DNA of 64,000 nt from Paraspadella gotoi (taxonomy: Eukaryota > Animalia > Chaetognatha), in assembly GCA_051294375.1 (NCBI GenBank), contig CM119263.1:5454823-5518822 (forward strand), read 5' to 3'. The notes beneath the pieces are model-generated. The model was not told where the DNA came from. It made no database searches and was given only the letters and a program-made list of their open reading frames with translations. The position numbers and the translations under genes are program-made. Shown one piece after another: positions 14,762 to 64,000 of the stretch; within the stretch, counting starts at the first letter, position 1, and the number at the start of each line of letters is the position of its first letter.

Positions 14762-14826
<65 letters not shown>

Positions 14827-14875
14827 GACGAGAAAGAGAGAGTAAAATGGGTTCACTTCTGATTTTGTCGTTAAA

Positions 14876-28600: not shown

Positions 28601-31600
28601 AAAAAGAAATAAAGTTTGAAATGATTTAATGCATTAATTAATTTGTGAATAAGGGTATGTCCAAAAGAACAACTAAGTATTACTGGTGGAACGATTATTT
28701 AATTATGGATAAGTTGTTAATGTCTTCAGCGAAATAATAGTCAAACCTTTTAAATCATCATTCCATTCACACAGAACGCCACTCGCACAGAATAAAAAGG
28801 TTCAACTTAATATTGAGGAGGAGAATGTCTTTTCAAATCCCTGAACCAGGACCTCATTACTGACCTGATGATACTCCATGCTTTGGTGAGATGAGGCCAT
28901 CATTTGCGCGGACATTTGCGCGGACATTTGGCTCATTTGATTGTGAGGATTCATCATGTGATGCGAGTGCGAATGAGGATGTGGTGGCATCGACTGGAAG
29001 GATCCGTGAGGTCCGCCTGGGAAAGACCCGCCTGGTCCCGCCTGGTTGGAGTACATGGCCGGACGCATGCCTGTTGAGGATGAGGAGAGAGAGAAATCTT
29101 AGTTGATGTAATATTTCTTCTTTTGCACTTTTTGCGCATTTTTTTATAAGTTAAAACCTCGCGTTTAACCCTTTCAAAACGGCTAAAGTTTATTTGTTAT
29201 TTTAATTATTATTTTTATTTTTACCTGGATGCATGGCTTGATTAGGCCCGGCCATGCTTTGGGCGGGATGTCCCATGCCAGGCCCCATGCTGTAGCCCGA
29301 CCCTGGCCCGAAATTCGCGCCAGATGGGTTGTGCCGTAACTGCATCTGCTGCAGCTGCGCGAGTGAGGAAGAGGAGGGGGGCGTTCCCGAAGGTCGGGCG
29401 GCCTGACCTGAACCGAAAGGATGCCCGGGAGAGATGCCTCCAGGGTAGGCGTTCGGTCCGCAAGAGGAGCCCATCGACCCAGCGGGCACTGGGCTGCCGA
29501 TTGACCCCGGCGTGCCCGGCGAGGAAATGACCTCTTGCTTGACCGTGACGCTTGTGGCGGCGCCAGAGAAAGGCGGGGCCACGCCCACCGGCGACGAATG
29601 CGCCCCCACCGATTGATGAGGATTGGGACTCGTCATGCGCGGATTGGCACCCGGATAGGCGGGGCTCGGCGCCGCATTGGCACCGTAGAATCCCGCGTTG
29701 GAGGCGTTGGACGACGGAGTGGTATTGGCTCCGCCGGGGAAGGGTGAGGTCCGGTTAACGGGGTAAGGGCCAGAGGTGGCCCCAGATTGATTGGCCGGCG
29801 ATTGATTGGGTCCTGATTGTTGAGGATATTGACTGGGATATCGGAGATTCGACGGGGAGAAGGGAGAGAGGGGTCCGCCTGAAGGGGAAGAGAAAAGATG
29901 AGTGAAAATAACTATAAAATTATCAACGCAGAGAATGGATTATCTAGTGGCTTGTCTCTCTTGGCTTCTCCGTCTTTTCTTCTGATTGACCAATCAGAGA
30001 GGAGGCTTCCCTCAGGAAACCGACGGCAGAGAAACGAGAGAGGGAACGTGATCACTCTTCAACTTACCTTCAAGAAACAAACATCAAACTCCTTATGGAC
30101 TATTTGTTATATTGTCTATTGCCTGCCATTTCTCTGCATAATCTACATATTTTGTATGTTAATTATCATCATCCTGAAGTGTTCTTATGTCAATAAAACT
30201 CCTCCTATTTCTCCCTTAATAAACCACGCCTACTTCCTTCGTTGTTATTATAAATAAATAAATTACTTGTACTTTACTAGAATGAATTTTAAAATTAATT
30301 TAAAAAGTTTGTAATGTTGCGTAGCCAAATTGCATTTCAAATTGACACTAACTAAAAACAATTCTTTGTCCTTGTAATTCATTATTGAGAGTTCCTATGT
30401 TTTTCAATATTTCGATATCCCGATGAAAATGTAAACTTAAACTCTCTCTCTCTCACCTGGCGAACAATTCTGATATCCTTGATGCCCTTGCGGCGTCCCC
30501 GGTTGCCCTTGGGAACCGGGACCGGCCGAAGCGGGCGAGTTCCCTTGATGCTGTTGCAATTGCTCTTTCTGGCTCTTGTGTTTTTCGGCCATTTGCTTCA
30601 AAGTTGCGGCAGCTGGGGAGATGGCCGCGGCGCCGGAGCCCGACCCTGCTGCGGAGCCGGGAGAGGCTGCCGGCGCCCCTGAGGACACGTTGGCCCCGGC
30701 CGGCGTTGTCGGACCGGAATGACTCGCCGCGGCGGCGGCGGCTGCTGCTGAACCGTTTGGATGCAGCGTGACATCGACGGAGGAAGAATTTCCAACGGAC
30801 AAAGTCCCTGATGGATTTTGATAATATTCACGATTATTATGATTTTTATTATGATTGTGGCATCGTAGATTTCGCGACCAGAGAGCAGAAGTTCTTTCGA
30901 TATCTCTCTCTCTCTCTCCTCTCATCGTTTACCTAGGGTATCATCAATCAACGACCAATCACCAAGCAATCACTCACCAGATCCGGTCGCAGTGACATTT
31001 GTTGACGTCACCATCGACATTGAAGCTTGGAAAGGGGAAGAGGAGGAAGAGGAGGAGGAGCATTGGGAGTTGGTGCCACCCATGGAGTGAGAGGAGGTTG
31101 AACCTGGGCCGAGCGTCGTCCCTGGAAAATGGTAAAAATGGCATTTGAGAAAATGCTAAAAATGCCATTTGAAAAAAAAAATGGATAGCGAGACAATTGA
31201 GAAAATGGTAAAAATGGGATTTAAAGATATTATAACTAGACATTTGATGAAATGGTAAAAATAGCATTTGAAAAAAAAATGACGAGTGACGATTGTGAAA
31301 ATGGTAAAAGTGGCTTCTGAGAAAATTGCGATTAAGAAAATGGTGAAAGTGGCAAAAAGCAATCGCAGATTTCACAGTCACTCACCGTAGGGAGGTGGAG
31401 GTTTCGACTGGTTTTTAGCCTCAGGATGCGCGTTTGTATTTGTTGGGCCTTTAAATGATAAAACAGCCACATATATAAATGGAGAAAATTAACTAACAAT
31501 AAAATTATTAAAATCTACCTTTGGCGTTAAAATTGGAGTGGTTTTGTCCTGGACCCGCTTGACATCCCATCACTCCAGCACCTCCAGGTCCCGATGGAAC

Positions 31601-31930
31601 ACCTGGACCAGGATAATTGCTTTGGTGCGACGTTGGCGTTGCGTTGGTGGCGTGAAATGGCGGCACCTGGTAATAGATGGGGCGTTGTATCGTTATATTC
31701 GTTTCTCGCGGTATTACGACGATGGCCTTAGGTAAGTCATTAATGTACAGGATAGGCTAAAATACTCATAGAAAATAACTTTGGAAATACTTGATCAAAA
31801 AATAGAAAGCTTTTCACTCTTGGAAACTAAACAGTGGTCAGTGGTCAGTGGTCAGTGGTAAGTATCACGAAATGACATTCACTGCCGCCAACAATATATC
31901 TATCTTTTACTTACACACACAGAGACACAG

Positions 31931-31970
<40 letters not shown>

Positions 31971-33311
31971 TCTAGAAAATGGAGGCTCCGCTGCCGTCGA
32001 TGGAAGCGAAGAATTCCAAACAGAATCGGCGAGGTCGTTCTTGGCGTCAACATTGGCGGCGTTGACTCCATTGACGCTCTCCTCTTCCATCTGCTCTATT
32101 GCCTTCATGATGTCGTCTGGCAATTCGCCTGAAGAGTCGCTGCTTCCGTCTTGGAAGAGACGGAGGATGTCCTGGTGGAGAAGGAGGGGAACAATGAGAT
32201 TTTTGTTTGACTTTAGAATTATTAAATTCTTCGAAATCACGAGTTACAAAATATAAAGTCACTCATTTACCGAAATCGCCCCTTAAATTCTAATATCACT
32301 CCATCAACCCCAGCACCTTCATCAACCCCAGCCGCTCCACTACCTTGATGTCGTGATCATCGAGCGTGTTGGCGTCTCCGCCTCCCGCAGCGACGTCCGC
32401 CAGATTTCCGCCACCAGTCGGCGCTTTCGTCGTCGTCGGCGTCGACGAGTTTCCTGCATCCGGTTTTTCGTGTTTGATGTCGACGTTCGTCTCGACGTTT
32501 GTCGTGTTGGTTCCACCTTGGACGCCGTTGGACGAGACGGTCACCTAGCGACGGTGGAAAGAAACAAAACTTAATAAATGAATTGAAAATTGAATTGTTG
32601 ATGTTTGACGTGAAACCTTGTGTCAACGCTTTCACTATCACTACTAGACTATCATTCCCGAGCGTAACTATTCTCGCACGCCTCGAGTGACTTTTCACAT
32701 TTATTTTTACTCTTCCCCAAGTGAGACTTCACCTGTGTCGTGAATGTTCCGCCCGAATTCGATTCGCCATCGAATTTCGAAACGACTTTGACTTGAACGC
32801 TGGCGGAAGTCGCTTCGCTGGAATCTGGGAAAGAGAAAAGTTTATTTGGCTTAGAAACTAGAAATGATTTGACTAATAAGCTTTAGCTGAGAAATTATTT
32901 CATGTCATTTAATAGTAGAAGCTAAAACATCAAGATAAATAATGTCAATGAGAGACTACTAGTTTTTAAAAGAGCAAAGATTTTCTGAGGCTAAATTAAA
33001 ATTTTTACTCGTCCCTAAACCGTAAATCTAGATAAAATCCATAATCTTAAACCCAAATCTAAAATAAAAAAAAATCCCAAATCCTAAAACCCAAAATCCC
33101 AAACTAACTTTTTTGCGAGTGAGACGGGTTGGCTGAACTGGGACAGGATCTCTTTGTGCCATGGGGCGCGGATGACCCAACGCCCGTGCCGCCCGGGCCG
33201 CTGGGGTTGCCGGGGCCAGTCGGGCCGCCAGGAAGATTGTCGGCCGATGGGAAGCCGCCAAAATTGGGGACGCCATCGACCGGCGGCGCTGATCCGTCGG
33301 CGTTCTTAAAT

Positions 33312-33355
<44 letters not shown>

Positions 33356-34783
33356 CATGCCCATACCGCTGTGCTCCGCTTCCAGCTTGCGCTTTAAGTA
33401 GTTCTGCTGGAAATGAATTAATTATTAATAATTAAAGAGTAATAACTAAGTTTAAGATGTTCGATATGAATCAATACTAACGGCGATCTGCAATGCTCTA
33501 GAATCCAATTCTTTGTTCCCTTGATTGTTGCCAAAATTGTTTTGCGATCCGACGGCTCCAACGGCTCCAGCAGCTGAGAGGCTGTTGTTGCTAGAGTTTT
33601 TTGCTCCTCCGCCTTTCGGTTGTTTTTTCAACCTTTAAATGAATTTTTATTATTGTTGTTTTTAGTTTTGCTTCATAAAAAAAAAACCGATTCTACATTA
33701 TAACATCATAACATCATACCAATTTCATAATAGAGGTTCTTTTATCCAATTGACTATTACATACAATTGAAACATTCTTTGAAACATTATGCCACTTCAT
33801 TGATAGGGAAGCCAGGTACTCTGGGAGTGAATAAACGAGACTGTGAGAAAGCTTTAATTGAAAGCTTGCAGGGACCTGTTGTGTCATTATCTTGTAAGAG
33901 TGATGGAGGCCTTAAACCACCGAAGCCTGTCCAAAGTCAGGGGCAAGATAGCTTATTTATTAAATGAATGGATAATTGTTATATTGGTTGTACCAATTTC
34001 ATATAGCTATATTCCACTTCATTGTTTTTAATAGTTGATAAACTGTAGACTGCCTCTTACAGTTTGCCGGAGAGAGTTATGATTGTAAGCTATTGTAGCG
34101 GTATATTCACACCGCCTCACGTCCACCATCCTTCAGAGGGGGAACACACCATCCCAGGCGTAGTGTTCCATCTACAGTCCTAACGACTTCCCTCTGCGTT
34201 GGCAAAGCGAGACCGTCCTAGGGTAACCGCGCCAGTGACTGGATGCGTCACTGAGGGTCGGAAGCCCCCAAAGCCAACAGTGAGATGCCCCATCCCAATG
34301 GGCATCACAGGCAACCCGGCTGTTGCCATACTATTTTATTATCTTGTTACCTTGTCCAGAGCCAGGAGGCAACAAATTAGCTTACTTTTTGAATGAACGA
34401 CAACTAACAATTTCGCCGACTCTTACTCACTCTCCATTCACCCACCCGATTCTCCTTTTTCACCCACCGATCTCACCCGAAAAATAACCTCACCTTCCAT
34501 CAACGACTTTCTGATGATAAGCGACGGTATCTTGTCTCTGTTGGTCGTACATCCCCGTCGACGTCCGTTCGTATTTCGGACCAGAATTATCGTGATGTCG
34601 TTTGTAGATTTGGAGTCGCTTTCGAAGTCGATCCAGGGTCATGGTACGGTCCACGTTGTTGACGGGGGCGCCGCCGCCGACGCCGCCGACCCCGCCGACC
34701 CCGCCGACGCCACCGCCGGCGCCTGATTGGTCGCGCTGATTGCCGATACCGTTCGGTCCGGCGTTAGTGATGAAATCTCCCAT
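25680..34783 (-). CDS. mam: Mastermind-like Notch transcriptional co-activator, about 13-14 exons (internal boundaries approximate)
   Basis: N-terminal MamL-1 helix TLDRLRKRLQIYKRHHDNSGPKYE...QQRQDTVAYHQK, central SPAAATLKQMAEKH, long Q/M/G/P-rich regions and an acidic C-terminus DFSLDFLDN..DLFDPDFSLLEDL. Confidence 0.9.
26700..27201 (-). mobile_element. Possible Tc1/mariner-type MITE remnant
   Basis: Minus strand reads TA-CAGTCCTGTGCAAAAAAAAAGGACACCC at 27201-27172, resembling a Tc1 terminal repeat with a TA site. The partner end was not found. Confidence 0.35.
31125..31370. repeat. Degenerate minisatellite (AAAATGGTAAAAATGGCATTTGAG-like) in a mam intron
   Basis: Recurrent AAAATGGTAAAA/GCATTTGA motifs. 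Confidence 0.6.
33760..34002 (+). mobile_element. Dispersed repeat family R1, longest copy
   Basis: Contains all blocks seen in the copies at 980, 2354, 7297 and 43491. Confidence 0.8.
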
Positions 34784-35319
34784 CGTGAAGACGAATAAAA
34801 AAGTTTTTATCACAATCACAGAATTGAAAGGGTGAAGAAGTGTGAGAAAGAAAATTGGGGGGGGGGCGTAGAATGAACGACCGTCGAAGATTCAAGCTTT
34901 TGGTTGATTCGGTTTTTTTTTTGTTTCGTTTTTTTTGTTTATGTTTATGTTTTGTTTGAGGCCGGGGACGATACTCTACGCGGTAGGACAGTCGTGATTC
35001 GTGTAATTAGAGTGAAGCCAATCAGTGACTGAAGGCAGAAGTCTGTACGGAATCACGCTGGTTGTCATCTCGCCGGTTCTCAGTCCGGTTCGTTGTTGTT
35101 GTTGTTGTTGTAGTTGTTTTGGAAAACGAAGATTCGCGAATAAAAGTGAAGGAAGACTATTGGATGCGAATCGCGCGACGACGCGACGTCAGCGCGCGTC
35201 ACCTGGCGGGGGAAAAATAAAAAAAATAACGTTTAAAAATAAAAGGTTAATAAGTCGGAATTTACTTTCAGCGATAAGAGAATTTTCACAAAAGATGAGA
35301 AGATGGGACTGAGATTAAC

Positions 35320-36090: not shown

Positions 36091-36599
36091 TGCCCCTCAA
36101 TTTCTCCGTTGGGCTTCTTCGGCGAAAGTCAATTTCGGTTTCGATCGCGGAACAAAAGATTTTTCTTTTCTTCAATCCCAGTGTTTTTGGCTTCCTCGTC
36201 GTCGTCGTCGTCGTCTGCACCTTCGTCGTCTTCATCTTCGTCTTCGTTGTCGTCAGATTTTTTTCTTTTAAGTTTCGATTTCACCAAGAAAAAGATAAAC
36301 GAATTTTAGGCCAAAGTTTGAGAAAAAGCGAGATAATCTTTTTTGGCTACTTAATCATTGTAAACAAAAAAGAGATAAAAAAAAACAAAAAAACCAAACG
36401 CGAAAATCCAGTCGAGATTCGATGAATATATTCTTTGTTTGTTTGTTTTTATGAATGCATTTTTTCGTGGTTGAAGCAAAAGATATCAGCGAGTCTTGCA
36501 CAAAAATCTTCCTTCAATGAGCCTCATTGCAGCAAGAAAAAATGAACCAAAGTCGCTGGGCTTTCTTCAATAAAATTGTTTCAACAGAGTACGAGTTCG

Positions 36600-36659
36600 C
36601 GAACACTCTCTCGCTCTCAATCATTTTTGTAACGATAAAAAGCGCAAAAAAACTAAACA

Positions 36660-36738
<79 letters not shown>

Positions 36739-36944
36739 AATCCTTGTTGTCGTTGTAATTGTCTTCGTTTTCGTTTAGTTTTTGATTTATTCTTTTTTTT
36801 CGTTCGATGCAGAAGATTCTGAGTGAAAAAAAAAATTCCGAGAAAACAACAAAAAAAAAATTGAAAAAAAAAAAAAAAAGCGAAAAAGTTGAAAATTGAT
36901 AAAGAAGTCAAAATTCACCCACTGTTTTTCAGCGTTGTCGAGAG

Positions 36945-36997
<53 letters not shown>

Positions 36998-37212
36998 CTT
37001 TGCTGCCAACCGACCGACATCTGATCTCGGTTTACTTTTTGTTCAACGGTTTTGCACTTGGGCTTGTGAGCGAAAGATGGAAGGAGAGACGAGAGAAGAA
37101 AGACAGCAGCAGAGGAGGGAGGAGGAGGAAGAGGAGGAGAGGAGAAGAATTAAGAAAGAATAAGAAATCGGTTTGTCGGAGTAAAGGCGAAACCGTCTCT
37201 CTCTCTGTCTAT

Positions 37213-37251
<39 letters not shown>

Positions 37252-37782
37252 GATAAGAGATGTGAAGATATCCTCCTTATTTTCTTCTTTTTTCTTCTCT
37301 CGAGACATCGAGGGAGAGAGAGAGAGAGAGAAGGAGAGAGAGCGAGAGGCCCAAGACGCTGCCAATCACCGCATTGGTGTCCCGGTTCCCGAAATCGAGT
37401 CAAGGAAGAATCCCTTCACCGACACTTAGTCTTTTTCTTCTTAATTTTGTTTCTTATTTAGTTCGTTTTTTCTATTTTATTTTATTTTTGTTCAATAATT
37501 TGTTCGTTTTTTATATTTCCTTTTTTAAATTTTATTTTGTTATTTTTTTTATTTTATTTTACTTTATTTTTTTTATTTCCATCTTTTACTGAATATCTTT
37601 TTAAAATTTTAATAATAAGATTTATTTTATTATTTTTTCTGTATTTTTTAAAACTTTGTACGATAAAATCTTTAATTGTTAAACTACCAAAGAAGGTGTA
37701 TCTTATTTTGAAAACAAACTAGTACACAAACAAAAGGCCACGATCAATGAAATTAAAAGGAGAAATCGGTAAACACATTCCT

Positions 37783-37831
<49 letters not shown>

Positions 37832-38624
37832 TCTCTCTCTCTCTCTCTCTCCTTTTTTGTAACCAATTGAAAACAGGAGGAGGACGACGCTAAGAGGCAA
37901 CGTGCGCTGAGAGAGAGAGAGAGAGAGGAGAGAGGATGATGAGAACTGGAGGATAGACGAGAGGATGAGAGAAGAGAGACACTGAACGACGCCGAGGCGG
38001 CTGACGCGGATTTTCCGTCCAAGATTCCCGACCCTTCATCATCATCATCATCATCATCATCGTCATCATCATCATCATCATTTTCATTGGTACCTTTCAA
38101 ACATCATTGTTGATCCTTTATCCTTAGCATCATCATCATCATCCTTGTTAAGATCATAATTTTCATCTTTTTGTAGTATATAGTAATGTAGTCATAGTAA
38201 TGACTAATAAGTAATTAGTAATGAGTAATAAATATACAGCCGCGATTGACAAATTGAATTTTATTTGTTTCTGAATACTACAAAAATACAGAATTTAAAA
38301 AAAGATAAATTGCATAAAATTAAGATAATTTAAAATTAAAATTTTGATCTTAAAATATATTAAAGATGAATATAGCTTTAAATATACACTAAAAGATAAA
38401 ATGTATAAAAGTCTATTCTTAAAATAATTCAAATATATCTTTCAATTTAAAAGTTTTAGTTTATGAATAAACAGCTGTATCAATAAATGTTTTTTGATAG
38501 TACCAATTTATAAAAACCACTAAATAAATGGAAACGGTGATCGTGTGTCACCAATTCTATTATCTACTTTGCAGCGTCAAGCTGGCAAGCTAGCATCGAC
38601 GGAGAGAACGAGGGAAAAAGAGAG

Positions 38625-38675
<51 letters not shown>

Positions 38676-38716
38676 AAAGAGCAGCGGGCGAAACAGCGCA
38701 GCCTGACGCGGAGATC

Positions 38717-38760
<44 letters not shown>

Positions 38761-38842
38761 CGATAACACATTGTAATTGAACGGAATATGTTTTGTCATT
38801 TCCATGAAATTAAGCGTCGGACGTCGAAAGAAAAGGATCTAA

Positions 38843-38893
<51 letters not shown>

Positions 38894-39020: not shown

Positions 39021-40217
39021 GCCGATCGTTGGAGGGGACTTTTTCCCGAAAATATATTTCGATCGTAGAGACGTCAATATTACATGCGAACACGTAACAA
39101 TGAAAAAATGAAAATTAACGAGAAAGAAATAAACTGGACCAAAAAAAGGATAAAATTATTTAATAGTTCTTTTTAAAAATTTAAGTTTGACAAAAATAAA
39201 AAAATAAGGCCCTTAACTTAAGTTTTTGGTTTTGATGATGTCAGCATTTACTTTCTTCGCCTTTGATAGAGATGATAATAAATTTACAAGGTAAAGAGGT
39301 TAATGATCACATTTCAACAATAAACATAGGATTCAAGCCATCAAGTATTGACTTCACTGTCTGAGTGAATTTTATTTATAACTTTTGTCTTTGTAAAATA
39401 GCCTTTTATATATTTACTTTAATTGATTGCATTTGCTTGCTTACTTGAAATACTTGAAATACTCGCCTCATTAATCAACAACAAGCATAAAGAATACATA
39501 GATTTTTAGTAATTTATTCTACTACATGAAAAGGGAAGATAATTGTTAATTTTATGATCTGCACTTTTGCTTTTTTTCGCTTTTGAGAGAGAGAGAGAGA
39601 GAGAGANNNNNNNNNNNNNNNNNNNNNNNNNAACACTCTCCTCGCTTCTCCAGATCTCTTTTGTAACGATAAAAAGCGCAAAAAAAAAAACTAAACAAAT
39701 TTCCTCTCTCTCTCTCTCTGTCTCTCTCTCTCTCTCTCTCTCCGTCTCTCTCTCTCTCTCTCTCTCTAATCCTTGTTGTCGTTGTAATGTGTCTTCGTTT
39801 TCGTTTAGTTGTTTGATTTATTCTTTTTTTCGTGTCGATGCAGAAGATTCTGAAGATGAAAAAAAAATATTCCCGAGAAAACAACAAAAAAAAAAATTGA
39901 AAAACAAAAAAAAAAAAGCGAAAAGTTGAAAATTGATAAAGAAGTCAAATATCACCCACTGTTTTTCAGCGTTGTCGAAGAGAGAGAGAGAGGGAGAGAG
40001 AGGAGAGAGAGAGAGCGAGGCTTTGGCTGCCAACCGACCGACATCTGATCTCGGTTTTACTTTTTGTTCAACCGTTTTGCACTTGGGCTTGTGAGCGAAA
40101 GATGGAAGGAGACGAGAGAGAAAGACCAGCAGCAGAGGAGGAGGAGGAGGAGGAGGAGGAGGAGGAGAAGAATTAAGAAAGAATAAGAAATCGGTTGTCG
40201 GGTAAACGGAAACCGTC

Positions 40218-40279
<62 letters not shown>

Positions 40280-40809
40280 ACTCTCTCTCTTCTGATAAAA
40301 TGTGTAAGATATCCTCCTCTATTTTCTTCTTTTTCTTTCTCTCGAGACATCGAGGGAGAGAGGAGAGAGAAGAGAGAGAGGGCGAGAGCCCAAGACGCTG
40401 CCAATCACCGCATGGTGTCCCGGTTCCCGAAATCGAGTCAGGAAGAATCCCTTCACCGACACTTAGTCTTTTTTCTTTAATTTGTTTCTTATTAGTTCTG
40501 TTTTTTTCTATTTTATTTTATTTGTTCAATAATTTGTTCGTTTTTTATATTTCCTTTTTTAATTTATTTTGTTATTTTTTTATTTATTTTACTTTATTTT
40601 TTTTTTTCCATCTTTACTGAATATCTTTTTAAAATTTTAATAATAAGATTTATTTTATTATTTTTTCTGTATTTTTTAAAACTTTGTCGATAAAATCTTT
40701 AATTGTTAAACTCCAAAGAAGGTGTATCTTATTTGAAAACAACTAGTACACAAAACAAAAGGCCACGATCAATGAAATTAAAAGGAAAATCGGTAAACAC
40801 ATTCCTCTC

Positions 40810-40882
<73 letters not shown>

Positions 40883-40947
40883 TTTTTGTTAACCAATTTG
40901 AAAACAGGAGGAGGACTGACGCTAAGAGCAACGTGCCTGAGAGAGAG

Positions 40948-40980
<33 letters not shown>

Positions 40981-41620
40981 CACTGACGACGCCGAGGCGG
41001 CTGACGCGGATTTTCCGTCCAAGATTCCCGACCCTTCATCATCATCATCATCATCATCATCGTCATCATCATTCAATCATTTTCATTGGTACCTTTCAAA
41101 CATCATTGGTGATCCTTTATCCTTAGCATCATCATCATCATCCTTGTTAAGATCATAATTTTCATTTTGTAGTATATAGTAATGTAGTCATAGTAATGAC
41201 TAATAAGTAATTAGTAATGAGTAATAAATACAGCCAGCGATTGACAAATTGAATTTTATTGTGTTTCTGAATACTACAAAAATACAGAATTTTAAAAAAG
41301 ATAAATTGCATTAAATTAAGATAATTTAAAATTAAAATTTTGATCTTAAATATATTAAAGATGAATATAGCTTTAAATATACACTAAAAGATAAAATGTA
41401 TAAAAGTCTATTCTTAAAATAATTCAAATATATCTTCCAATTTAAAAGTTTAGTTTATGAATAAACAGCTGTATCAATAAATGTTTTTTGATAGTACCAA
41501 TTTATAAAAAACCACTAAATAAATGGAAACGGTGATCGTGTGTCACCAATTCTATTATCTATCTTGCAGCGTCAAGCTGGCAAGCTAGCATCGACGGAGA
41601 GAACGAGGGAAAAAGAGAGA

Positions 41621-41687
<67 letters not shown>

Positions 41688-41728
41688 AAAGAGCAGCGGG
41701 CGAAACAGCGCAGCTCAGCGCGGAGATC

Positions 41729-41772
<44 letters not shown>

Positions 41773-41854
41773 CGATAACACATTGTAATTGAACGGAATA
41801 TGTTTTGTCATTTCCATGAAATTAAGCGTCGGACGTCGAAAGAAAAGGATCTAA

Positions 41855-44860: not shown

Positions 44861-46936
44861 TCAAACACTGAGCAACTCGTAGTAAGGGGACTCCACCAAT
44901 TCGAACATCGACGTCAGCAGTCGCACGTTCCACGCCGTCTTCGCCGAACGCACCGCCGCGGCAGCAGCAGCAGCCTGTTTGAAGGTAACGATGGCGGCGG
45001 CGGCGGCGGCGGAGGTGGCGGTGGTGGTGGTCGTGCAGTCGAGAAAAGATACGCGGACGTGCAAGACGTCACCGAATTGAGAGAAGAGCGCGTCTAGATA
45101 TTGCGCCAGATTTCGCGCCTGGAATCTGGCGCCTAGGGCCACGCCCCCTACGAAGACGCGTGACGAGGAAGACAGCAAATCCGTCGCCAACGAGAGAGAA
45201 GTGTAGGAGGAGAAAGGGCTGTACGGGAAAAGGAGCGATACGTCCAACGCGTGAGAATCGAGGATGTGATTTTTGGCGCCGAAAATCGCGTGAAAGGCCG
45301 GGAGAGTGGATTGTTGTGTGTAAAGAACTTCACCAACGACTTTGAAGTCGATTGACTTTCTGGGGTCTTCGCTGTCAAAGACTTTGACGAAATCTTGCAG
45401 CATCAATCTGCAATCGTGAATGTCGCCGAACTGCAAAACGAAGTATAAAAGCTAAATAATAATAACTAAAAAAATCAAAACCAAACCCCCGCTACAAATC
45501 AAACCCAAATACCAAACAAAACCTGAGAGAAATAATCGAAAAATTGATCCAACGTAGTCAATTTGTTTATCTGAGTCACTTTGATTTTGCGAGTTGAGCT
45601 AAAGACGTGATTGGGTTCGTAGGATCCATATTTGGGGGGCGAGTCCAGCCCGGAAGGGGCGAGTCCAGCCCGGAAGGGGCACGGTTCATCCTCGAGTGGA
45701 GGGCGGGGAGTCGCTTGTTCGTATGCAAGGGGAGAACGCCTGGGCGGCGGCGGCGGAGGAGGCGGGTAAGGAAGGCCGCTGCCGTTGGCGTCCGACGAGG
45801 TGAGTGAAGACGATTGACGACTCGATGCGCAGGAATGAAGGTGAGGTTTAGGTAAGGGACGTTGGGAGCGTGGTGGAGGGATGGGATGGCGAGATTGTGG
45901 TTGATTGTGCTGAATTTGTGGTTGATTGTGGTTGGATTGTGTTTCATTGTGGTGAATTTGTGGTTGATTGTGGTGAGATTGTGTTTCATTGTGGTAAGAT
46001 TGTGTTTGATTGTGGTGAGATTGTGTTTGATTGATGTGAAAGATTGTTGTTTGATTGTGGTGAGACTGTGTTTGATTGTGGTGAGACTGTGTTTGATTGT
46101 GCTGAATTTGTGGTTGATTGTGGTTGGATCGTTTTTCAGGTGTGGTGACATTGTGTTTTCATTGTGGTGAGATTGTGTTTCATTGTGGTGAGATTGTGTT
46201 TCATTGTGGTGAGATTGTGTTTCATTGTGGTGATTGTAGAATTGTGTTTCGATTGTGGTGAATTTGTGGTTGATTGTGGTTGGATCGTGTTTCATTGTGG
46301 TGAGATTGTGTTTCATTGTGGTGAGATTGTGTTTCATTGTGGTGAGATTTTCTCTGGATTGATTGTCTATGTGGCTGATGGAAAGTAGAAAGGGTTGGCT
46401 GCGTCGGCGACCGGCTGCGTTGCAAATCCGCGCAGCAGGGATGTCGACAACCCGATGGGGACGCTTCATATCCGAGGGATACGTAGCGCGCTTCTTGGGG
46501 TGAGGTCAAGGGCATGTGCGGTCCATGTGCCTTATCAGGAGAAGTGAGGGCTAAGGGTGGTCCGCGAGCCTCACGGGGCGCGATAATGAGGTAAGGCTCA
46601 ACATCGATGCTTCGATCGGAATTGGGGGTGTCCAGACTCACCTCCATCGACGTCGACGACGGTAGACGACGCGGCGGAGTAGGTGGGTCACGCCCAACAC
46701 AGCAGCCGGACTGCGCTGCTTTGCCGGCACGAAAATGGGTGCGGCGCGACCAACTCGAGACGCCAGCGCCGCCCCCCAGTCGACCGATCGACGCCGCGGC
46801 GAAGGGACAAAGAAAAGGCCCCGAAACGCCGGAGCCACGGGCGGGCGGCGGCTGTGGAGACTGCGGAGGTTTCGATAGGTCGGTTTGCAGCAGCAGGGGT
46901 TGAAGGTAAGAGTCTGATTCATAGGCTGAATTCATA
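44861..46936 (-). CDS. Divergent two-RRM RNA-binding protein (Musashi/hnRNP A-D-like layout); exons ~46642-46936 (tentative), 45523-~45830, 44861-45430
   Basis: RKIKVTQINKLTTLDQFFDYFSQ|FGDIHDCRLM...KNHILDSHALDV (RRM1) and RVFVGGV...LFSQFGDVLHVRV...IVTF (RRM2), joined by a phase-0 GT-AG intron at 45431-45522. Confidence 0.7.
45890..46350. repeat. 21-nt minisatellite TTGTGGTGAGATTGTGTTTCA, about 21-22 copies
   Basis: Clear 21-nt periodicity that generates the spurious TTMKHNL / HHNETQS repeat ORFs. Confidence 0.9.
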
Positions 46937-50596: not shown

Positions 50597-52285
50597 TGTT
50601 TATTATAATTTAAAATGAAAAACATCAACGAAAGACGAACGCTTTTTGAATCGTTGTTGTTCTGGCGTCAGTTTAGAGGAATTTTCGTGGAGGAATCTTA
50701 AGCAGAAAGAGGAAAGAAAAGAAAGAAAGAAGGTAGAAAAAGGAAAGAAAGAAAGGAAAGAAAAAAGAAAGAAAGTTGTCGTGTTCGTCGTCGGGAGAAT
50801 TCGTGGGAGGAAGACAAGAGTGGGAGAAAGATGGGGAGGAAGAGAGGGAGGAAGGGAATAGGAAGAGGGGAAGGAGGAGGGAGGAAAAGAGGGAGAATGG
50901 GAGGACGGTAAGAGGAGGAAGGGGAGTAGGAGAGAAAGATATAGACTATAGAGAAAAAGGTCTGAGAAGTGGTGGCGGAATGAAAGAAAAGAAAAAAAAG
51001 GCAAAAAAAATGAAGAGGGCAACAAATTTGGGGCTGAACTTCCTTTTAAAATAATCAAAGAACAAAAATGTAACTAAAGATATGAGATCAAATTAAGCAT
51101 TGAAAGAAAAAAGAAAAACTGAAATTGAAAATTGAAAGATATTTATTTCTTTGTCATAAATTTGTACTCCTAATTTTTCTTTGTTTTGTTTCAAGAATTA
51201 GGATTTTAAGATGCGATTTTCAATTTAGCGGAACCGTGGTTGACCTCAAAAGATAATTAAAAAACTCAAGAAGAAAATTTAAAAAAATGGCAATAAAGAA
51301 AAATTTTCTTAGTAGTTGAATTTGTTCCCTCGATTCTTTTAATAAAGTTTAACTAAAAAAAAACACCTTTTCTGGTAAATATAGTATTTGCGTTGTTACC
51401 CTCATTTTCATTGTTGTAACAATCATTCAACTTTGTTTTCTTTGTTCTCACACTCGGTCGTCCTTATTATCACCGTTCTATCACTCGACCAATTTATCAT
51501 TACTCATTCTTCATTCACAAAATCTTTTAGCTCGGTTTATTAGTGACGCTGCGACCCAACCTTTCTTTCACTGCCCTACCTTTATGACAACCCCTTATTA
51601 TTTCTGTTTCACCGAAAATTTTATTCTTATTTGTCTTTAAAATTTTTCATATTTTTTAACCATTTTCTTTAACGTATTTTTCATATTTTTAATATTTTAC
51701 AGTCTACTTGAAAAACTCCAACTTATCGCGAAAGAAACCTTTTAATCGGATAAAATCTTTCGATTTATCGCGAAAGATCGAACTTCGTCATCTGCTTTAT
51801 TAGTTTGCTTTGCTTTTTTTCCCCCGTCTGCTTTATTTGCATATAATAGTTTTCCTTCCACAACTTGATAAAAGACAAAGTCTCTCTGACCCATTCTATC
51901 TCGGCTCCAAAATGAAAAAAAAGAAAGAAAAGAAATGCGGATCTTTTTTTTTAAGCTTCAGTGCGAAAAAACAAAAAATTTAAGCTTGAGTGACAACAGT
52001 ACTATTGCACTAACGAATAAATGAATCTTGTTTTAACGTCTTCCCCTTTATTTATACATAAAAATGTAAATTTCATTACATTCTACAATTTCCAATAGGT
52101 GAAAAAAAAAATCCTATGAACCAAATGGACCAACGAACATGATTGTTATTGGTTGTGCAACAAGATTTTTATTATCATTATAAGAGTAATGTTAATGATG
52201 ACACACTAAATATAATTGCTGTTAAATTTAAAGAACTCGACCTCCTTTTCTGTACCATCCGACACAAGATTCCCTGGAACTGAAA

Positions 52286-54832
52286 ATGTCGTGTCAGAAG
52301 TCAAAAACTACAACAACAACAATATCGGCAGCGATTTGTTTTCTCTTCTTTCTTCGATCATCATTTGGATCAAATTGCATCGAAAATTGCGAAAAACAAG
52401 GTAGCGTCTTTAGTAGAAAGATACAAACAAAATTGTAAAGACACTGAGTAAATGAAGTTTATACACAAACAGGGAGACAAATGAGAACAAGGATGTGCAT
52501 TGTGCGGATGCCAATTGAAAATTTTTTACGTTGGTTTTTCGTAGGAATTGTTTTTCCTATTGTCTCCGCAATCCTACAATAATCTGGAGTATTCCCAAAG
52601 GGTTCGCCACTCCATTTAAAATTTATTGTCAAAGTGGTGACAACGTAGGATTCGACCTACCACGCACCGGGTGTCGTTGGTGTAGAGAATAAAAAAAAGT
52701 ACTTGATTTTTTCACTGTAACGTAACTAAGACAACAACATTGAACATAATAGTTTAATCCAACGCTTAATATGTATTTAAAATTATAATTATATTTTAAG
52801 CGCTATATTTACATAAACCAAGTGACAATTTTTAAAAAGAGAATTATTTTATTCTCATAATTTTAATGTTTTTTTTTAAAAAAACAAACACTTCAATATG
52901 CAAATGAGACTAAAATATAAAAAAAAAATTATCATTAATACGTCCCCTCGTATTCTGCGAATGGAATGGAATTAAATGGAATCAGCCTGAGGAGATCTCA
53001 AAATTTTCTCCGGGTAAAATTGTCTCACAATTATTGGTCGAAAATCGTTATTGATCAGATATCCATTTAACTTGCGCATGAGTCAATTGTATATTTTTTA
53101 GCGTCATTTATATTTCACCGACCGAATTTTTTTTTTTAAATCAAACTTAATATTTATGTATCAATATGTAAGACTCGCTGCAGAACTCATAATCATGAAA
53201 ATTTTCTGAATACGCACCAAACAGCTTATACTAAAATTCAACGCAATGAAACAGCGCAATTTAGCAACGCATTGCAATATTGCAAAGTAATGCCGCGCAT
53301 TGCTACAATGTAATGCAATCATGCCATGCGCAATCGGTTGAATTAACATTCTTCGTTCTTTCCATCATCTATTACAGCGACCCCATCAACCTGCTGGAGC
53401 AGCAACATCGCTTGGTACTCCATCAACGCCCTATACTCATTCAACCAGAGGGTGACGGTGGCGGCGCACATCGGCGCTTGGAAGAAACAAAGGAGCAAAC
53501 CGATTTTCGATCCGACTCGAGTGGCGGCGCTGTTGAATAGGATCGCAGAATGGAACGAAGGTTGTTGGTGACCGAAGATGTTATTAGTATTAATATTTAT
53601 GTATTTATGATATTATATATTTAAATTTTGCAAATAATTTGGCATCAACGTGTTAGAAAATGTCACTATTTAATTTCAACTCAATTACATTATCATAAAT
53701 GAAAGTATTTCTTATAAAATATTGGTACAAAGTAGTACAATATTATCTTAATCTTTCCCTACTTAATCTACCCTAGGTCCGCTAAACAACGACACTGTCA
53801 AAGATTTTTTCAACTTAATTATAAACAAAACGACTGAATACGAATTTGACGCTTTGGATGATCCGCCTAAGTTCAACTGCAGTTTATATGACGAGTGTAA
53901 AAAGGGATACGAGACTGACTGCAACTCTAGCTGTTCGATTGGTGAGTCTCACAAGCGATTTAACAAATCACATTTGAACTGAAATTTATTGTAGAATCAG
54001 TCTTCATGAATATCATCATTACCGAAAAAACGAAAACAAAAATTAAGTAGTAAAATATAAAATTAAAAAGAATAGAAAAGAATATAAAAGGAAAATAGAA
54101 AAAGAATATAAAATTAAAAAGAAGAAAAAAAGAAAATCTTTTGTTTTTACATTGAATAGCAGCTCTATCTATCTTTAGAAGAGGAACTTATTTCTTAGAC
54201 AAGAGACAATGAGAATTATATTGCACCTTTAAAACTACCAAAAAAATTGAATTCATTTTCTGCCTGAATCTTTGATCTGATTACGAGCTAAATTTAACTG
54301 AAAATTTTAACTGTTAGCATTAAATAGAATCACATCCTCACCGACACTAATCCTTTCACACTACCCTCCATTTTCCACCCCCCACATTTCATACTCCCCT
54401 CCATTCTCAGATGATTCAACTCTCGACTGTTGGCGAAACAACATCAACGTCTTCACTGAATCTTTGCTTCTTTCGTCGAATCAAATTTCGATTCTGGAAT
54501 CGAGACTAAATCGATCACTGAGTCAAGAAGGCCGACAGTCGGTCAACCGAACGACGATAGATCAACGAATCGAGACGATTCTCACGGCTAATGTCGGTCT
54601 TCCTCTGCCCGACAACTCTGTCCGGCAAGTCTTTCTCAAACTCTTTGATTACACTTTGGACTTTAGCGAGACCTCGTCGTCGGAGTCTGCCCCGGAGTTT
54701 GAGTGCAAAGTCTCGCCAGAGTGCAAGTCCGCCGCCAGGGGTTTGAGACCCGAATGGTGGACGTCGGTGTTTTTGTCTTTGTTGTTGTTGTTGGCGGGAA
54801 AGTGGGAATATTTGAGTTATGTCGCGTCATGA
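52286..54832 (+). CDS. Secreted/membrane-anchored AroQ-type chorismate mutase-like protein, 294 aa (exons 52286-52400, 53378-53560, 53777-53941, 54411-54832)
   Basis: Three phase-1 GT-AG introns, 885 nt in total. Signal peptide, then FNQRVTVAAHIGAWKKQRSKPIFDPTRVAALLNRIAEWNEGPLNNDTVKDFFNLIINKTTEYE (AroQ R-x10-K-x8-D-x2-R pattern), a second degenerate repeat LDCWRNNINVFTESLL...PLPDNSVRQVF and a hydrophobic C-terminus. Confidence 0.82.
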
Positions 54833-56624
54833 ATTCCGACTTTAATTCAGAAGAAGTATTTATAATTATAATCGCTAAAATTGTAAACATTGTACCGACT
54901 ATGTATAGTTGTATACATATAGCAAAAAAGAGTTTTAATAAAAAATATGATTTTTTTAGGTGTTAAATGTTCAATTTGTTATTTGTAGATCAATAATAAA
55001 GTTATAATAAAAGCGGCGATACGACTTAATTTATTCAGATGTATACAAATAAAAGTTCAATAAGCAATAATTAAATAGATTTTTAGTTAGATAGTAGTTC
55101 AGCTGGAACAGCTTTTTTACCCTTACTTACATACATGCAACATACATTAGCATTGTAACCAAATTGTAAATTAAAACCTACTAAATCGTATTAGATCGAG
55201 CAACGCCTTCAAAAGAGGCTCAGCCTCTCTGTCTCTAAAAGGATTTTAAATCCGCTTAATCTTCTCTTTATTTGTTTTTCTCGTTGATTTGAATCCCCCT
55301 ACCTTTTCCTCGTCCTTAGTCCTTACCCTGGGCAAGTTTCTCTTTCGGGGGAAATTAAAAGGGAGGCAACCTGACTGGGGAAAAGGCAAGGGAGGCTAAA
55401 TGGGTGAGGGGTCGATTCGGGTGGGATTCGAGAGGGAAATCCTCTTTGGCCTTAATCGATCTGAGTTCAATCGACGATGGGGAATTGATTGATAAAATAG
55501 GAAATGGGAAGGGGGATTAAGTGAGCGAAATGAAGAGAGAAAGGAAGAGGGGAAAAATAAAGGAAAAAGGGAAAGATAGAAGTATGGAAAAGAAATAAAG
55601 AAAAAAGCTTGGAGAAACTGAAACAGTTGGGAAAGGGAGCAGAGGATATCTCAAACTTTATCCACACATCTTGAACTTGCTTTAACTTAAAATCTACTCA
55701 AGCTTGTTTTAAAAACCGAAAATCGCCTGTTCTGTTTATATCTGGTCTGTTCATGTAATTTTCTTGACATGTATCCATTAAGAATCCCTCCTTTTTTTCT
55801 CTCTCATTTCCGTTAAGTTTTTTTTGGACTACTTTTCCGGGGATATTGATTTTCCATATTTTCGTGTTTTAACTTTTCTCTCTTTACAGGCGAAAGAGGA
55901 GAATAATTGTAAAAAAAAAAATCTAAAAAAAAAAGAGAAAGTACATAGAAAGAAATCTAAATAACGTTTATGTTTGCTTACAACTCGCTCTAAAAAGTTT
56001 TTGGGCTACCAACCATTAATATTTTTAAAAAAGTTTGACCTTCATCTTCTCAACACATTTTTTAATATTGTCTTTTATTCCAAAAAAAATTTCAAAACGT
56101 AATCAAAGTTGAAAATTCTCGATTTAAAAAGTTCATTATTTCTTTGTCACTTCCGCCTTAAAAAGAAATGAAAATAAATGAAATTAATTTCTCGGTGTCG
56201 TTGTTCTCGTCATAGTCGTCGTTTACGTCGTCGTTGTTGTCGATTTCGTCGTCGTTGTTCTCGTCATAGTCGTCGTTTTCGTCGTCGATTTCGTCGTCGA
56301 TTTCGTCGTCGTTTTTTTTTTCAAAATTCGCTCATCACATTTAATAAAAAAAGTTAAAACTTGAAAAAGTTAAACCAATAGTATTGGCAATACTGAAACT
56401 ACGAATTTATGAAAAATAGGAATATATAAAAAAAAGAAGAAATTAATCAGATCTATTTAAGTAAATGTATAAATCGCTCGAAGCTGAGAGTCAAGCATGT
56501 TTAAGAAACAACAAAAATCCATCTTCTGCTGGGATTAGAGCTCTAGTGTCAAATCATCGCAGTTCCTCAATAAACAGGCCAACGATTCATATGGATCATT
56601 GGATTAGGCTAACTGTTTAAAAAG

Positions 56625-61783: not shown

Positions 61784-64000
61784 CTAGATATTTTTTCCCC
61801 TTTTTTCGCGGGTGTCCCAGGGAGTTAACTGCACAGCCTCTCGAATCAATATCATAAAATAAAAAGCAAACCTCAGCCACCAGAAAGCAAAGAAATATAA
61901 GGCCCCACACGTGGATTTTTTAAAAAAACGCCAAAAATATAAAAGGGCAAATTTTCTTTGTATTGCATCAGCGTTGAACTTTAGATTCAAATTTATCAAA
62001 TTTTCAAGTAAAATCCTTTCTTTTTAAATTAAAAAAGGATTTTCGAAATTCCCGAACACCCCTGTTCAATGACCGGTCTTATCCGACCACCTCTTCTCCG
62101 ACCTCCCTCTGTCCGACCACCCTTTGGTCCGTAACACAGGAAACTCTGGGATCCGTACGTGAAGGATGCGTACAAAACAAGTCAGGACAAGAAAAGCGTC
62201 GTTTATTGGAACGTGAATTATCCCTTTCCGTTGTTGAACAGAGATTATGTCTACGCGACTCAAGAAAAGATCATTTGTCTTAATGGAAGACAATTTTGGG
62301 TGACTTTGGCCGAAGCTGCCGAGGTGAGCATTTCGGATTGGTGACTGTGACGGGTGATTGATTGGTGAACGATTGGAAATATCGAATGGCCCTTTTCGAT
62401 GATCGACAAAAAAAAATTAATTGAAGAAAACAGCATTTTTACTTTTTTAGTTTTCGTTGTTTGATAAATTGATATATTATTCGATTGTTTAATTGTTTAA
62501 TATTTATAATAGCGATCTACTTGTTATCACCAAAACATCTTTGCACTCCACATTCCACAATCCGCATACTGCGCAAACGAATGCTGGTTACGATTCTTTC
62601 AACATTTAATCCATTTTTTTTCTTAACCTCCTTTCTTCCCTCGCTCTTTCCTGCTTCCTCCTCTTACTGTTTCCCCCCTGCAATCCCCGTTTTCATACCC
62701 CACTGTCCTCTCCCCTGTCTCCCCCTCTTTCCCTCTTCCACTCTTCACTCTCTCCCCAAGGTTCCCGGCCTCCCGGAGATAAAAGGCACAGTTCGTGTCA
62801 CAGAATTTTACGAGAATCTCGTTTTCGCTTCTTCCCGCCAAAAATCGATCGGCGCTTCGGTCGCCGAGGCGGAGAAAAAAGAGCATCGAGAGACCGACCG
62901 ACCGACCGAGGAAGACCGACCGACCGACGACGCCCCCAGGACGGAGTTGTTCGCCCACATCAGCGACAACCCCCGGGGACAAATCCCAACGTGGATGTCG
63001 GAAAATTGGGCCAAACAAAAGTGCATCCCGGATTTCTACAGAGCGTTCATGGACGCGTGCGAGATGTACGAAGAGTATTTGGCGTTGCAGACGATGGAGG
63101 AGGAAGAGGACGAGGAGGAAGGGAAGGAGGAAGGGAGGAAGGAGGAAGAGAAAGGTGAGATAGGGTGAAGGGAAGAAATGAATGATTTAATTTGATTTGA
63201 CGTAAAAAGAATTTTGCTTTTGATAAATGATGAATTGATTATTCCCCTTTTTTCTTCTCTATTTTTTCTTTTTCTCTTCTCCACCTTCCCATCTCACCCT
63301 TCTCACTCCGCTCCTTTCTCCCCTTTCCCCTCTCTCCAACTCATCCCACTTCCTCCCTTCCACCCTCTCCATTCTCTCTACCCCCTTCCCCCGTCTTCTC
63401 CCCCCTTTCTCCCCCCATCTCAACAGATGTAGAGAAACGTCTTTCCAAATGCAAAATTTTCGTCTCTTCCAATAACAACAACAACGACAACGACAACAAC
63501 GACGCCGCCACAAAAAACAGCGCCATCGAGTGGGCGTTGGGCATATCCGGTTCGACGCCGCGAAAGACTGACGTCGGCGACGACGCCGACGCCGTCGACG
63601 ACGCCGCCCAGCGTCAAATCGGCGCCATGCTCGGATCGGCGCGCTGCCTCTTTCCTTCCTTTGGCGCCGGTTCCGCTTCGGCTTCGTCACGCCATTACGT
63701 TCGCGCGCAAATTCCCACGAGTCAACGCCTCTTGTACTCTACCCCGATGATATCGGGCGCGGCTGGCCCCCCCCTCTGCTCATCGGTCCACGAGCACGCC
63801 GCTTGTCCGCAATGCACGGGCGCCGACGTGGAAAGATCGCGCCACGCCAGCGGCGGCGGGAGTGACAACGGCGGCGGCAGCGGCAGCGGCGGTGATCTTC
63901 CGCCGCTTCCTTGGCGTCGTCCCGTGACGGCAGCGGCGTCGCCTCCTCGTTACGACGACCTCTACAAAGCGAAAAGAACAACAACAACAACAACCGATCA
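60354..64000 (+). CDS. PCTP: Phosphatidylcholine transfer protein-like START domain protein (exons 60354-60494, 61650-61717, 62140-62323, 62761-63154, 63427 to the window end; alternative unspliced stop at 63168)
   Basis: MFKRVHFERACMEM...KIYRK..WEFK|IFGELKGVTPDVCSKVINDVNYR|KLWDPYVK...VYWNVNYPFPLLNRDYVY...PEIKGTVRV...DNPRGQIPTWM..NWAK...IPDF matches the STARD2 motifs. Phases are consistent. Confidence 0.88.

Follow-up and report, generated by a model that had tools for sequence, protein, structure and literature searches.

The window analysed here, a 64,000-nucleotide stretch of contig CM119263.1, carries at positions 52286..54832 of its forward strand a spliced and transcribed gene for a 294-residue protein with the AroQ fold of chorismate mutases. 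Its main feature, missed by the sequence-only reading of this DNA, is the presence of two tandem AroQ repeats of about 117 residues in one chain, between which the residues of a single active site appear to be divided. The elements of the gene, with positions counted along the window, are as follows.

52286..52400, + strand: exon 1 (coding part), with the predicted signal peptide (residues 1-28) and the first CxxxC motif.
52370..53901, + strand: repeat 1, residues 29-141, across introns 1 and 2, with the same-chain active-site residues.
52401..53377, + strand: intron 1, 977 bp, phase 1, GT-AG, absent from the X9 contig.
53378..53560, + strand: exon 2, helices 1 and 2 of AroQ repeat 1, with R63, K74, P80-I-F-D83, R86 and V87, and Ser46 at the Arg11 site.
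53561..53776, + strand: intron 2, 216 bp, phase 1, GT-AG, within repeat 1 and without a counterpart in repeat 2.
53777..53941, + strand: exon 3, helix 3 of repeat 1 (N116-K-T118 sequon, T119, E122), PxFxC-x5-C, the linker and the second CxxxC.
53914..54727, + strand: repeat 2, residues 146-260, across intron 3, keeping the Arg11 equivalent, with the same-chain site residues mostly gone.
53942..54410, + strand: intron 3, 469 bp, phase 1, GT-AG.
54411..54832, + strand: exon 4, degenerate AroQ repeat 2 with PxFxC-x5-C, the anchor tail and the stop codon.
54434..54436, + strand: codon of R163, the Arg11 equivalent, aligned to B. subtilis Arg10 of 5GMU.
54728..54829, + strand: C-terminal tail, in which the small residues S-A-A and a spacer precede a hydrophobic stretch of 15 residues and 9 more residues, resembling a glycosylphosphatidylinositol (GPI) signal by hydropathy.

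Regarding the gene model, a spliced open reading frame (ORF) of 294 residues had been proposed from the letters of the DNA, where many alternative splice combinations stay in frame, so that the exon model is not fixed by the sequence. Four exons and three GT-AG introns are borne out by the contigs of run X9, in which all junctions are present: exactly 977, 216 and 469 bases with GT..AG ends are omitted, and the depth is about 105-166 on exons versus 0-8 on introns. X9 is a single run of a single study, taken to be RNA from its spliced joints, since no run is recorded as such, and the 216-base joint has only 26 letters on its shorter side. One X9 contig spans 52103-52398 and then joins exon 2; the listed X9 pieces end at 54729, the stop codon and anchor tail being backed only by the DNA contigs X5 (54262-54966) and X8 (54407-54920) of a second study, with zero differing letters over the 3' end. 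In-frame stops lie 5' of the start at 52229 and 52223. The gene is thus spliced and transcribed.

The transcribed leader (52103-52285, in X9) holds six upstream ATGs, none of which runs uninterrupted into the main frame, possibly reflecting translational control or an unspliced leader. In addition, a low-depth X9 contig keeps intron 2 and has there a 14-base deletion and two substitutions (53757, 53680-53692), as either a pre-mRNA or another allele would. A joint from 51935 to 55551 in X4 and X8, which would remove the gene, was set aside as an artefact, as it has 21 letters on one side and lies in purine-rich, low-complexity DNA.

The AroQ-like core recognised by the sequence-only reading is confirmed by the CM_2 profile, against which exon 2 scores 34.4 bits (E 2.6e-8, cut-off 27), and the residues it had singled out, R63, K74, D83 and R86 together with V87, T118, E122 and R163, are all in place. 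A full HMMER search with exon 2 returned 6 matches, 4 of them CM_2 proteins. P0001 has two repeats, and P0007 is its near-copy. P0002 (XP_074648200.1, Tubulanus polymorphus) and P0003 (XP_064644599.1, Lineus longissimus) are nemertean proteins annotated as 'uncharacterized protein' and located on large contigs (27 and 29 Mb). The similarity of P0004 ends at a Val codon in helix 3, its ends and the V/S/N at its last three site positions being unreliable, and it looks like one exon read into its flanking introns by a gene caller. The CM_2 scores of these relatives are 46-62 bits. A profile search (8 matches) added P0008, with two repeats, a signal and a tail, as well as five bacterial P-proteins; it missed P0003 and P0004 from its own query, and the taxonomic range beyond these is not bounded by it. 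P0005 and P0006, repeat-driven bacterial matches lacking CM_2, were dropped. No relative came out of the word-index searches, whether made with exon 4 (266 candidates) or with exon 2 (5 candidates), pattern scans of genome and metagenome contigs with the animal sequences confirmed 0 among 41, 308 and 60 candidates, and in the Atlas exon 2 and P0002 had no feature match, with only bacterial CM_2 clusters found by structure.

The nemertean proteins XP_074648200.1 and XP_064644599.1 share with the window protein the CxxxC and C-W-R motifs, the same sequon and 45-46% identity to repeat 1. They differ by having a single repeat, a true transmembrane (TM) helix and a cytoplasmic tail, seen as a hydrophobic stretch of 24-31 residues followed by 14-23 residues of basic character, whereas the two-repeat forms end in a hydrophobic stretch of 12-19 residues at the extreme C-terminus that resembles a GPI signal. 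Both signal peptide and GPI signal were assessed by hydropathy alone. An export-signal-like hydrophobic stretch is present at the N-terminus of the window protein, P0008, P0002 and P0003, and the GPI-like pattern (small omega-site residues, spacer, short hydrophobic end) is found in the window protein and P0008, being weaker in P0001 and P0007; the sequence C-x-S-[AN]-A before the tail is also present in P0001, P0007 and P0008. The anchor is putatively GPI, with a TM anchor as the alternative. Moreover, where several N-glycosylation sequons had been noticed, six are present in the 294-residue protein.

The two repeats (residues 29-141 and 146-260) are identical at 27/113 positions, and their cysteines (CxxxC, C-W, PxFxC-x5-C) align in 5/5 cases. 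Their alignment score was reached by 0/5000 shuffles, with the same outcome after masking of the cysteines, and tblastn inside the 64-kb window gave the internal repeat as its sole match. Exon 4 alone matches PRK12595 (E 0.0036) and CM_A (E 0.043), both weakly, over profile positions 5-91. Introns 1 and 3 share the same phase, and the repeat alignment puts them no more than one codon apart, suggesting that intron 3 is likely a duplicated copy of intron 1; from this match, the duplication would have occurred in an already intron-bearing animal gene.

Residue equivalences were derived from the alignment with the B. subtilis structure 5GMU via the family profile and from the repeat alignment, with numbering from PMC5526877. 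In repeat 1, Arg28, Lys39, Asp48, Arg51, Ser84 and Gln88 correspond to R63, K74, D83, R86, T118 and E122, with Ser46 at Arg11. In repeat 2, I180, L191, N200 and T203 occupy the Arg28, Lys39, Asp48 and Arg51 sites and the Gln88/Glu equivalent is lost, with R163 at Arg11. In AroQ-alpha dimers, Arg11 is supplied by the partner subunit (PMC5526877); therefore, repeat 2 retains the residue that the repeat 1 site needs from outside. The downstream arginine that had been noted as gamma-like is indeed present as R163, which would complete the site and proves to be the Arg11 of a second full repeat. The six-residue AroQ set (Arg11', Arg28, Lys39, Asp48, Arg51, Gln/Glu88) is then all present, as R163, R63, K74, D83, R86 and E122. 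The P-x-x-D loop is found in 5/6 active-type repeats, and 8/10 of the *MtCM site residues listed in PMC10520331 are matched by spacing.

The same division is seen in the independent two-repeat proteins, namely the window protein, P0001 and P0008 (P0007, as a near-copy of P0001, is excluded from the counts). The Arg11 site is S/S/K in their first repeats and R/R/R in their second ones; Arg28, Lys39, Asp48 and Arg51 are kept in 3/3 first repeats, and in the second repeats Arg28, Lys39 and Arg51 are lost in 3/3 and Asp48 in 2/3. Invariant columns number 48/83 in repeat 1 versus 28/83 in repeat 2. Both arginines, Arg11 and Arg28, are kept in 3/3 single-repeat relatives, and the AroQ-alpha trait of Arg11 lying 17 residues before Arg28 on helix 1 is found in P0002-P0004, with remnants in each window repeat. 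The AroQ-alpha homodimer with two sites is not matched by the window protein, which has two unequal repeats per chain and residues for one site only. It is thus predicted that the two repeats divided one composite site, R163 completing the pocket of repeat 1.

This reciprocal retention, in which 3/3 proteins keep Arg11 in repeat 2 and, in repeat 1, the same-chain residues, is what selection on a single pocket predicts, and it argues against the fold having been repurposed as a surface scaffold, or as an adhesion or immune protein with an unrelated ligand, in which the pocket residues would be structural. Such a role would suit the absence of the shikimate pathway from animals (PMC4828791), the heavy predicted glycosylation and the cysteine pattern, and repeat 2 would then be an example of a fold outliving its site; all considered, it is judged quite improbable.

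The structural prediction was made on the relative P0008 and not on the window protein, using AlphaFold2 with a 6-row alignment (mean predicted local distance difference test (pLDDT) score 68, predicted template modelling score (pTM) 0.66). The model has six core helices (34-67, 75-88, 95-114, 153-186, 194-207 and 215-238). With a second aligner, it superposes on single-chain AroQ-gamma enzymes with Z 11.6-12.7 over about 150 residues, at a root-mean-square deviation (rmsd) of 3.3-3.9 A, compared to Z 8.7-9.1 for beta enzymes of fungi and plants, 7.6-8.1 for complete alpha protomers and 5.8 for the first unrelated row; the top 28 structural rows are all chorismate-mutase-type entries, and Foldseek also ranked secreted gamma enzymes first. 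On the basis of this gamma-like superposition, it is predicted that the two repeats form a pseudo-dimer within one chain, and the doubled-repeat architecture in this form is put forward with considerable confidence. Exon 4 folded alone reached a pLDDT of 49.6 and was discarded. Three points weaken the structural argument: Foldseek with the P0008 model gave 0 matches at E 0.001 or better, the aligner cautions that Z values below about 13 are attainable by helical bundles, and the support comes from a model of a relative, of the limited depth and pLDDT given above.

Features of the gene had been likened to those of the secreted AroQ-gamma class. As far as the fold of the whole chain is concerned, this agrees with the P0008 model, but membership in or descent from the gamma class is not the best reading. 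When the family profile was compared to the Protein Data Bank (PDB), 5GMU came first (E 8e-12), with 2D8D, 5J6F and 3NVT also found, against E 0.09-0.37 for the gamma entry 6CNZ, and no yeast or plant enzyme appeared up to E 10. With the animal profiles, the six PheA/AroA(G) alpha domains listed reach 38-53 bits; of the two gamma proteins, one reaches 7.6 bits and the other has no score. The gamma-class family profiles gave 19.1 (TIGR01806, cut-off 74.15) and 22.8 bits (PRK09269, cut-off 158) with exon 2, a fragment unable to reach either cut-off. Reciprocally, a two-sequence gamma profile scored 12 bits, whereas 30 random PheA profiles of equal size averaged 32 (range 18-46), the PheA set having been chosen partly with the animal profile.

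Among 301 genomes from the phylum of G001, 66 have a match, nearly all in PheA-length frames. After duplicate removal, 92 domain matches became 86 bacterial domains, of which 72/86 have Glu at the Gln88 site and 13/86 have Val at the Glu52 site, including 4 PheA-type ones; the markers previously taken as gamma-like are thus not diagnostic. The four PheA-type domains with this Val (L086, L087, L088 and L093) also lack Glu at the Glu106 site, like the animal family, which makes them natural controls for the need of that glutamate.

In the trees, the nine animal-type domains form one clade (100/100). A mixture-model tree of 54 rows, from which second repeats, two long branches and near-copies were left out, groups the six active-type repeats with five PheA domains and one AroA(G) domain at a support of 96/85, and the best trees put the family apart from gamma. 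The group labels were assigned from the source search, ORF length and motifs, and five loci labelled as E. coli-type PheA are sub-threshold matches of the gamma search. Regarding the donor, the following results count on the other side: approximately unbiased (AU) tests reject none, with p-AU values of 0.275 and 0.075 for gamma, 0.194 for a TIGR01803-like and 0.428 for an AroA(G) donor, and the trees hold 2 gamma sequences and 83-84 columns, without native eukaryotic, nematode or insect mutases. Mainly because of the similarity and of the alpha topology in single-repeat forms, a bacterial AroQ-alpha donor (PheA/AroA(G)) is favoured over gamma, and the gamma likeness of the single-chain fold would probably be convergent.

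The bacterial affinity suspected at first is supported, as the closest known sequences are bacterial and the window carries a spliced animal gene of AroQ fold. Considering the introns, the expression, the host-like composition and the presence in related animals, a bacterial gene transferred long ago and since domesticated is likely. That the locus is instead a misjoined contaminant, or is an early eukaryotic inheritance, passed down vertically, that most animals have lost, would find room in trees that hold no eukaryotic mutases and in a linkage to the neighbours judged without read-by-read evidence. It is highly improbable given the spliceosomal introns, with GC 0.24-0.32, similar to the 0.33 of the flanks, a GC at third codon positions of 0.55 versus 0.55-0.70 in neighbouring genes, an even X4 contig depth of 175-228 across gene and flanks (X4 may be the assembly source), exon-intron contigs also in a second study, the relatives on the 27 and 29 Mb nemertean contigs and the bacterial nature of the nearest known sequences.

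Regarding the function, an even chance is given to a GPI-anchored, disulfide-bonded ecto-chorismate mutase that would convert microbial chorismate to prephenate. In the proposed course of events, an AroQ-alpha domain of PheA/AroA(G) type, cytoplasmic in its bacterial source, would have passed to an ancestor of marine worms and gained a signal peptide, cysteines, the sequon, introns and a transmembrane anchor, giving the nemertean state, which would need homodimerisation. A segment including intron 1 would then have been duplicated within the gene in this lineage, after which repeat 1 would have kept the Arg28/Lys39/Asp48/Arg51/Ser84/Gln88 equivalents and repeat 2 Arg11, with decay of the second site. 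As the least certain step, chorismate of lysed gut or skin bacteria might be removed, or converted to prephenate, then phenylpyruvate, then phenylalanine. Prephenate can decay in acid to phenylpyruvate, from which transaminases can yield phenylalanine. Host transamination of phenylpyruvate is cited for insects (PMC4607527), and the P-x-x-D loop has been linked to autonomous mutase activity (PMC7762937). In addition, Val at the Glu52 site is shared with 4 PheA-type domains and so is not necessarily incompatible with the reaction.

Several observations speak against such an enzyme. T. polymorphus and L. longissimus, the named relatives, are predatory worms, and a supply of chorismate is hypothetical. 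Glu52 is missing in 6/6 active-type repeats (Val in 4, Ala in 2; it is also absent in 17/86 bacterial domains), and the Glu106 site lacks Glu in 6/6 (Thr in 5, Ser in 1), the window protein having V87 and T119; Gln76 of the secreted enzyme is replaced as well (Leu90). The glutamate that contacts the 4-hydroxyl group is prominent in structurally characterised mutases and critical for efficient activity, and valine at its site correlates with lyase activity (PMC12329711). Moreover, T118 is the third residue of a sequon kept in 5/6 active-type repeats and may therefore be retained for glycosylation, and a glycan at this sequon could obstruct the site.

The loss of the hydroxyl-binding glutamate, together with the retention of the carboxylate-binding arginines and Lys39, would also suit a protein of the same architecture that mainly binds chorismate, prephenate or a similar dicarboxylate, thereby sensing bacterial lysis at the surface, or scavenging from it, while catalysing little. 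Among solved structures, the nearest are regulatory domains of AroA(G), whose kinetics are poor, with a Km of 1514 uM and a kcat of 0.78 per s (PMC5526877), the nemertean forms have a TM helix and a cytoplasmic tail of 14-23 residues, and, for exported bacterial enzymes, chorismate has been proposed to signal that bacteria have lysed (PMC10520331). However, the nemertean tails are short and unlike each other, the two-repeat forms seem GPI-anchored and without a cytoplasmic part, and the catalytic Lys and the P-x-x-D loop are conserved, and so binding as the main role is regarded as unlikely, though a serious contender.

Val or Ala at the Glu52 site, with no substitute glutamate, likewise recalls an AroQ-fold enzyme acting on a sister substrate, of which an isochorismate pyruvate lyase forming salicylate would be the likeliest, with an aminodeoxychorismate mutase as another option. 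Valine there correlates with lyase activity in PchB, and the secreted M. tuberculosis mutase owes a side lyase activity to it (PMC12329711); a grouping with TIGR01803-like proteins is not rejected by the AU test (p 0.194). Meanwhile, Asp48 and the small residue at the Ser84 site are mutase-like, PchB having Ala51 and Tyr87, repeat 1 scores 19 bits with a profile of 12 TIGR01803-like domains versus 49 with one of 62 PheA domains, and isochorismate would presumably be scarcer still outside bacteria. Thus, a change of substrate seems rather improbable.

Comparing the window protein with known systems, the bacterial PheA enzymes of the N-x-G-P type and the AroA(G) domains of Bacillus, Geobacillus and Listeria (5GMU, 5J6F, 3NVT; 2D8D in Thermus) share its three-helix protomer, Arg11 and Arg28 on one long helix, and the D-P-x-R and N-x-G-P motifs, with the E of 8e-12 given above, up to 34-38% identity and an rmsd of 1.1-1.6 A over about 65 residues. 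These AroQ-alpha proteins are cytoplasmic two-site homodimers fused to other enzymes, whereas the window protein is predicted to be secreted and anchored, and is Cys-rich and glycosylation-ready, with two repeats per chain, a single intact site and no Glu52. The AroQ-gamma enzymes (*MtCM 2FP2/2F6L; Burkholderia 6CNZ/5TS9), the best whole-chain structural match, are also exported, with six helices per chain and a helix-4 Arg completing one site (predicted here), and *MtCM further shares Val at the Glu52 site and Thr and Glu on helix 3. Unlike them, the window protein has recognisable full-length repeats with matching Cys and intron, a predicted membrane anchor and relatives of alpha topology; its Arg lies 41 residues past Glu, compared to 25, it lacks Glu106 and Gln76, and the identity is 16-21%. 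PchB from Pseudomonas aeruginosa shares the AroQ fold and Val at the Glu52 site (V87), but it is a cytoplasmic homodimer with Ala and Tyr where the window protein has Asp83 and Thr118, and its profile similarity is low.

Transferred chorismate mutases are already known in animals, as in nematodes and whiteflies; what is new here is the predicted surface anchor, the intragenic duplication and the reciprocal loss of site residues. The mutases of plant-parasitic nematodes (Hoplolaimina) are likewise bacterial genes in an animal and carry a signal peptide; they group with Burkholderia-related bacteria and are mostly plant-directed effectors (PMC4828791). TM regions are present in the Nacobbus mutase (PMC4828791 supplement), a precedent for membrane-bound mutases in animals. 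Compared by description, without setting the sequences side by side, the window gene seems to have a different donor class, and it has a predicted C-terminal anchor and DRC2 and Mastermind neighbours. The whitefly mutase is of Enterobacteriales origin and belongs to bacteriocyte metabolism, where phenylalanine is supplied together with the bacteria (PMC4607527); the whitefly and psyllid mutases are also animal genes of bacterial origin tied to phenylalanine supply, and, by description, a surface anchor or tandem repeat is not mentioned in the cited part of that paper. Chorismate mutase is also listed among novel arthropod genes (PMC4943190). The acquisition was probably separate from that of the known animal mutases and from a different bacterial subclass. 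In the open literature, which leaves out most subscription papers and bioRxiv supplements, no paper was found on chorismate mutase in nemerteans, lophotrochozoans or marine worms, or on a GPI-anchored one.

The known animal mutases serve plant parasitism in nematodes or intracellular symbiosis in sap-feeding insects. Meanwhile, this family is kept in two distant nemertean groups and is predicted to be anchored at the cell surface, which would imply a use of chorismate-like molecules at the animal-microbe interface for which no description was found; it bears on the question, raised in PMC10520331, of why chorismate mutases are exported to places without an evident substrate. The series of single- and double-repeat forms offers a natural test case for the passage from two-site dimers to one-site single chains, and the family bears on the dispensability of the 4-hydroxyl glutamate. 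In its widest form, the proposal is a marine-worm family of bacteria-derived surface proteins that would detect or consume chorismate, with one lineage having independently re-invented the single-chain, one-site form; it is offered tentatively, as it is more doubtful than probable. If true, animals would have a receptor or ecto-enzyme for a short-lived shikimate-pathway intermediate marking lysed bacteria, and an intragenic duplication would have re-created the architecture of secreted mutases with the single- and double-repeat states both extant.

The remainder of the window holds neighbouring genes on both strands. A galactosyltransferase ORF lies at 7596-8660 (- strand; Pfam E 2e-13), and fragments at 6141-6377 and 4764-5569 (-) resemble by eye a second, spliced galactosyltransferase gene. 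A DRC2/CCDC65 gene at 21410-23661 (-) has an NYD-SP28 domain and matches DRC2 in the PDB (E 7e-29 and 2e-27, with two further matches at 5e-13 and 3e-4), and therefore indicates a host with motile cilia or flagella; this speaks against a nematode, as nematodes are not known to have motile cilia. It is followed by a Mastermind-like gene at 25680-34891 (-; MamL-1 E 1e-13), whose long exons are rich in Gln, Pro and Gly and which has a GP(Q/H)-rich repeat at about 27500-28600, an RRM-containing ORF at 44861-45451 (-) and a START-domain gene at 62135-63168 (+) similar to phosphatidylcholine transfer protein (PDB 1LN1, E 4e-15). Given the galactosyltransferase, DRC2, Mastermind, RRM and START neighbours, the window is animal.

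Three tRNA genes are present: tRNA-Leu(TAA) at 2783-2866, tRNA-Gln(TTG) at 3905-3977 and an intron-containing one at 24067-24166 (-), left unnamed by ARAGORN and read by eye as tRNA-Ile(TAT). Two nearly identical copies of ORF text are present, at about 36500-38850 and 39550-41850 (38677-38838/41689-41850 and 36787-37149/39818-40318), flanking an N gap at 39607-39631, which would fit either a tandem duplication or an uncollapsed haplotype. Finally, long tandem arrays of degenerate repeats at 14700-17700 and 45500-46500 give rise to spurious long ORFs.

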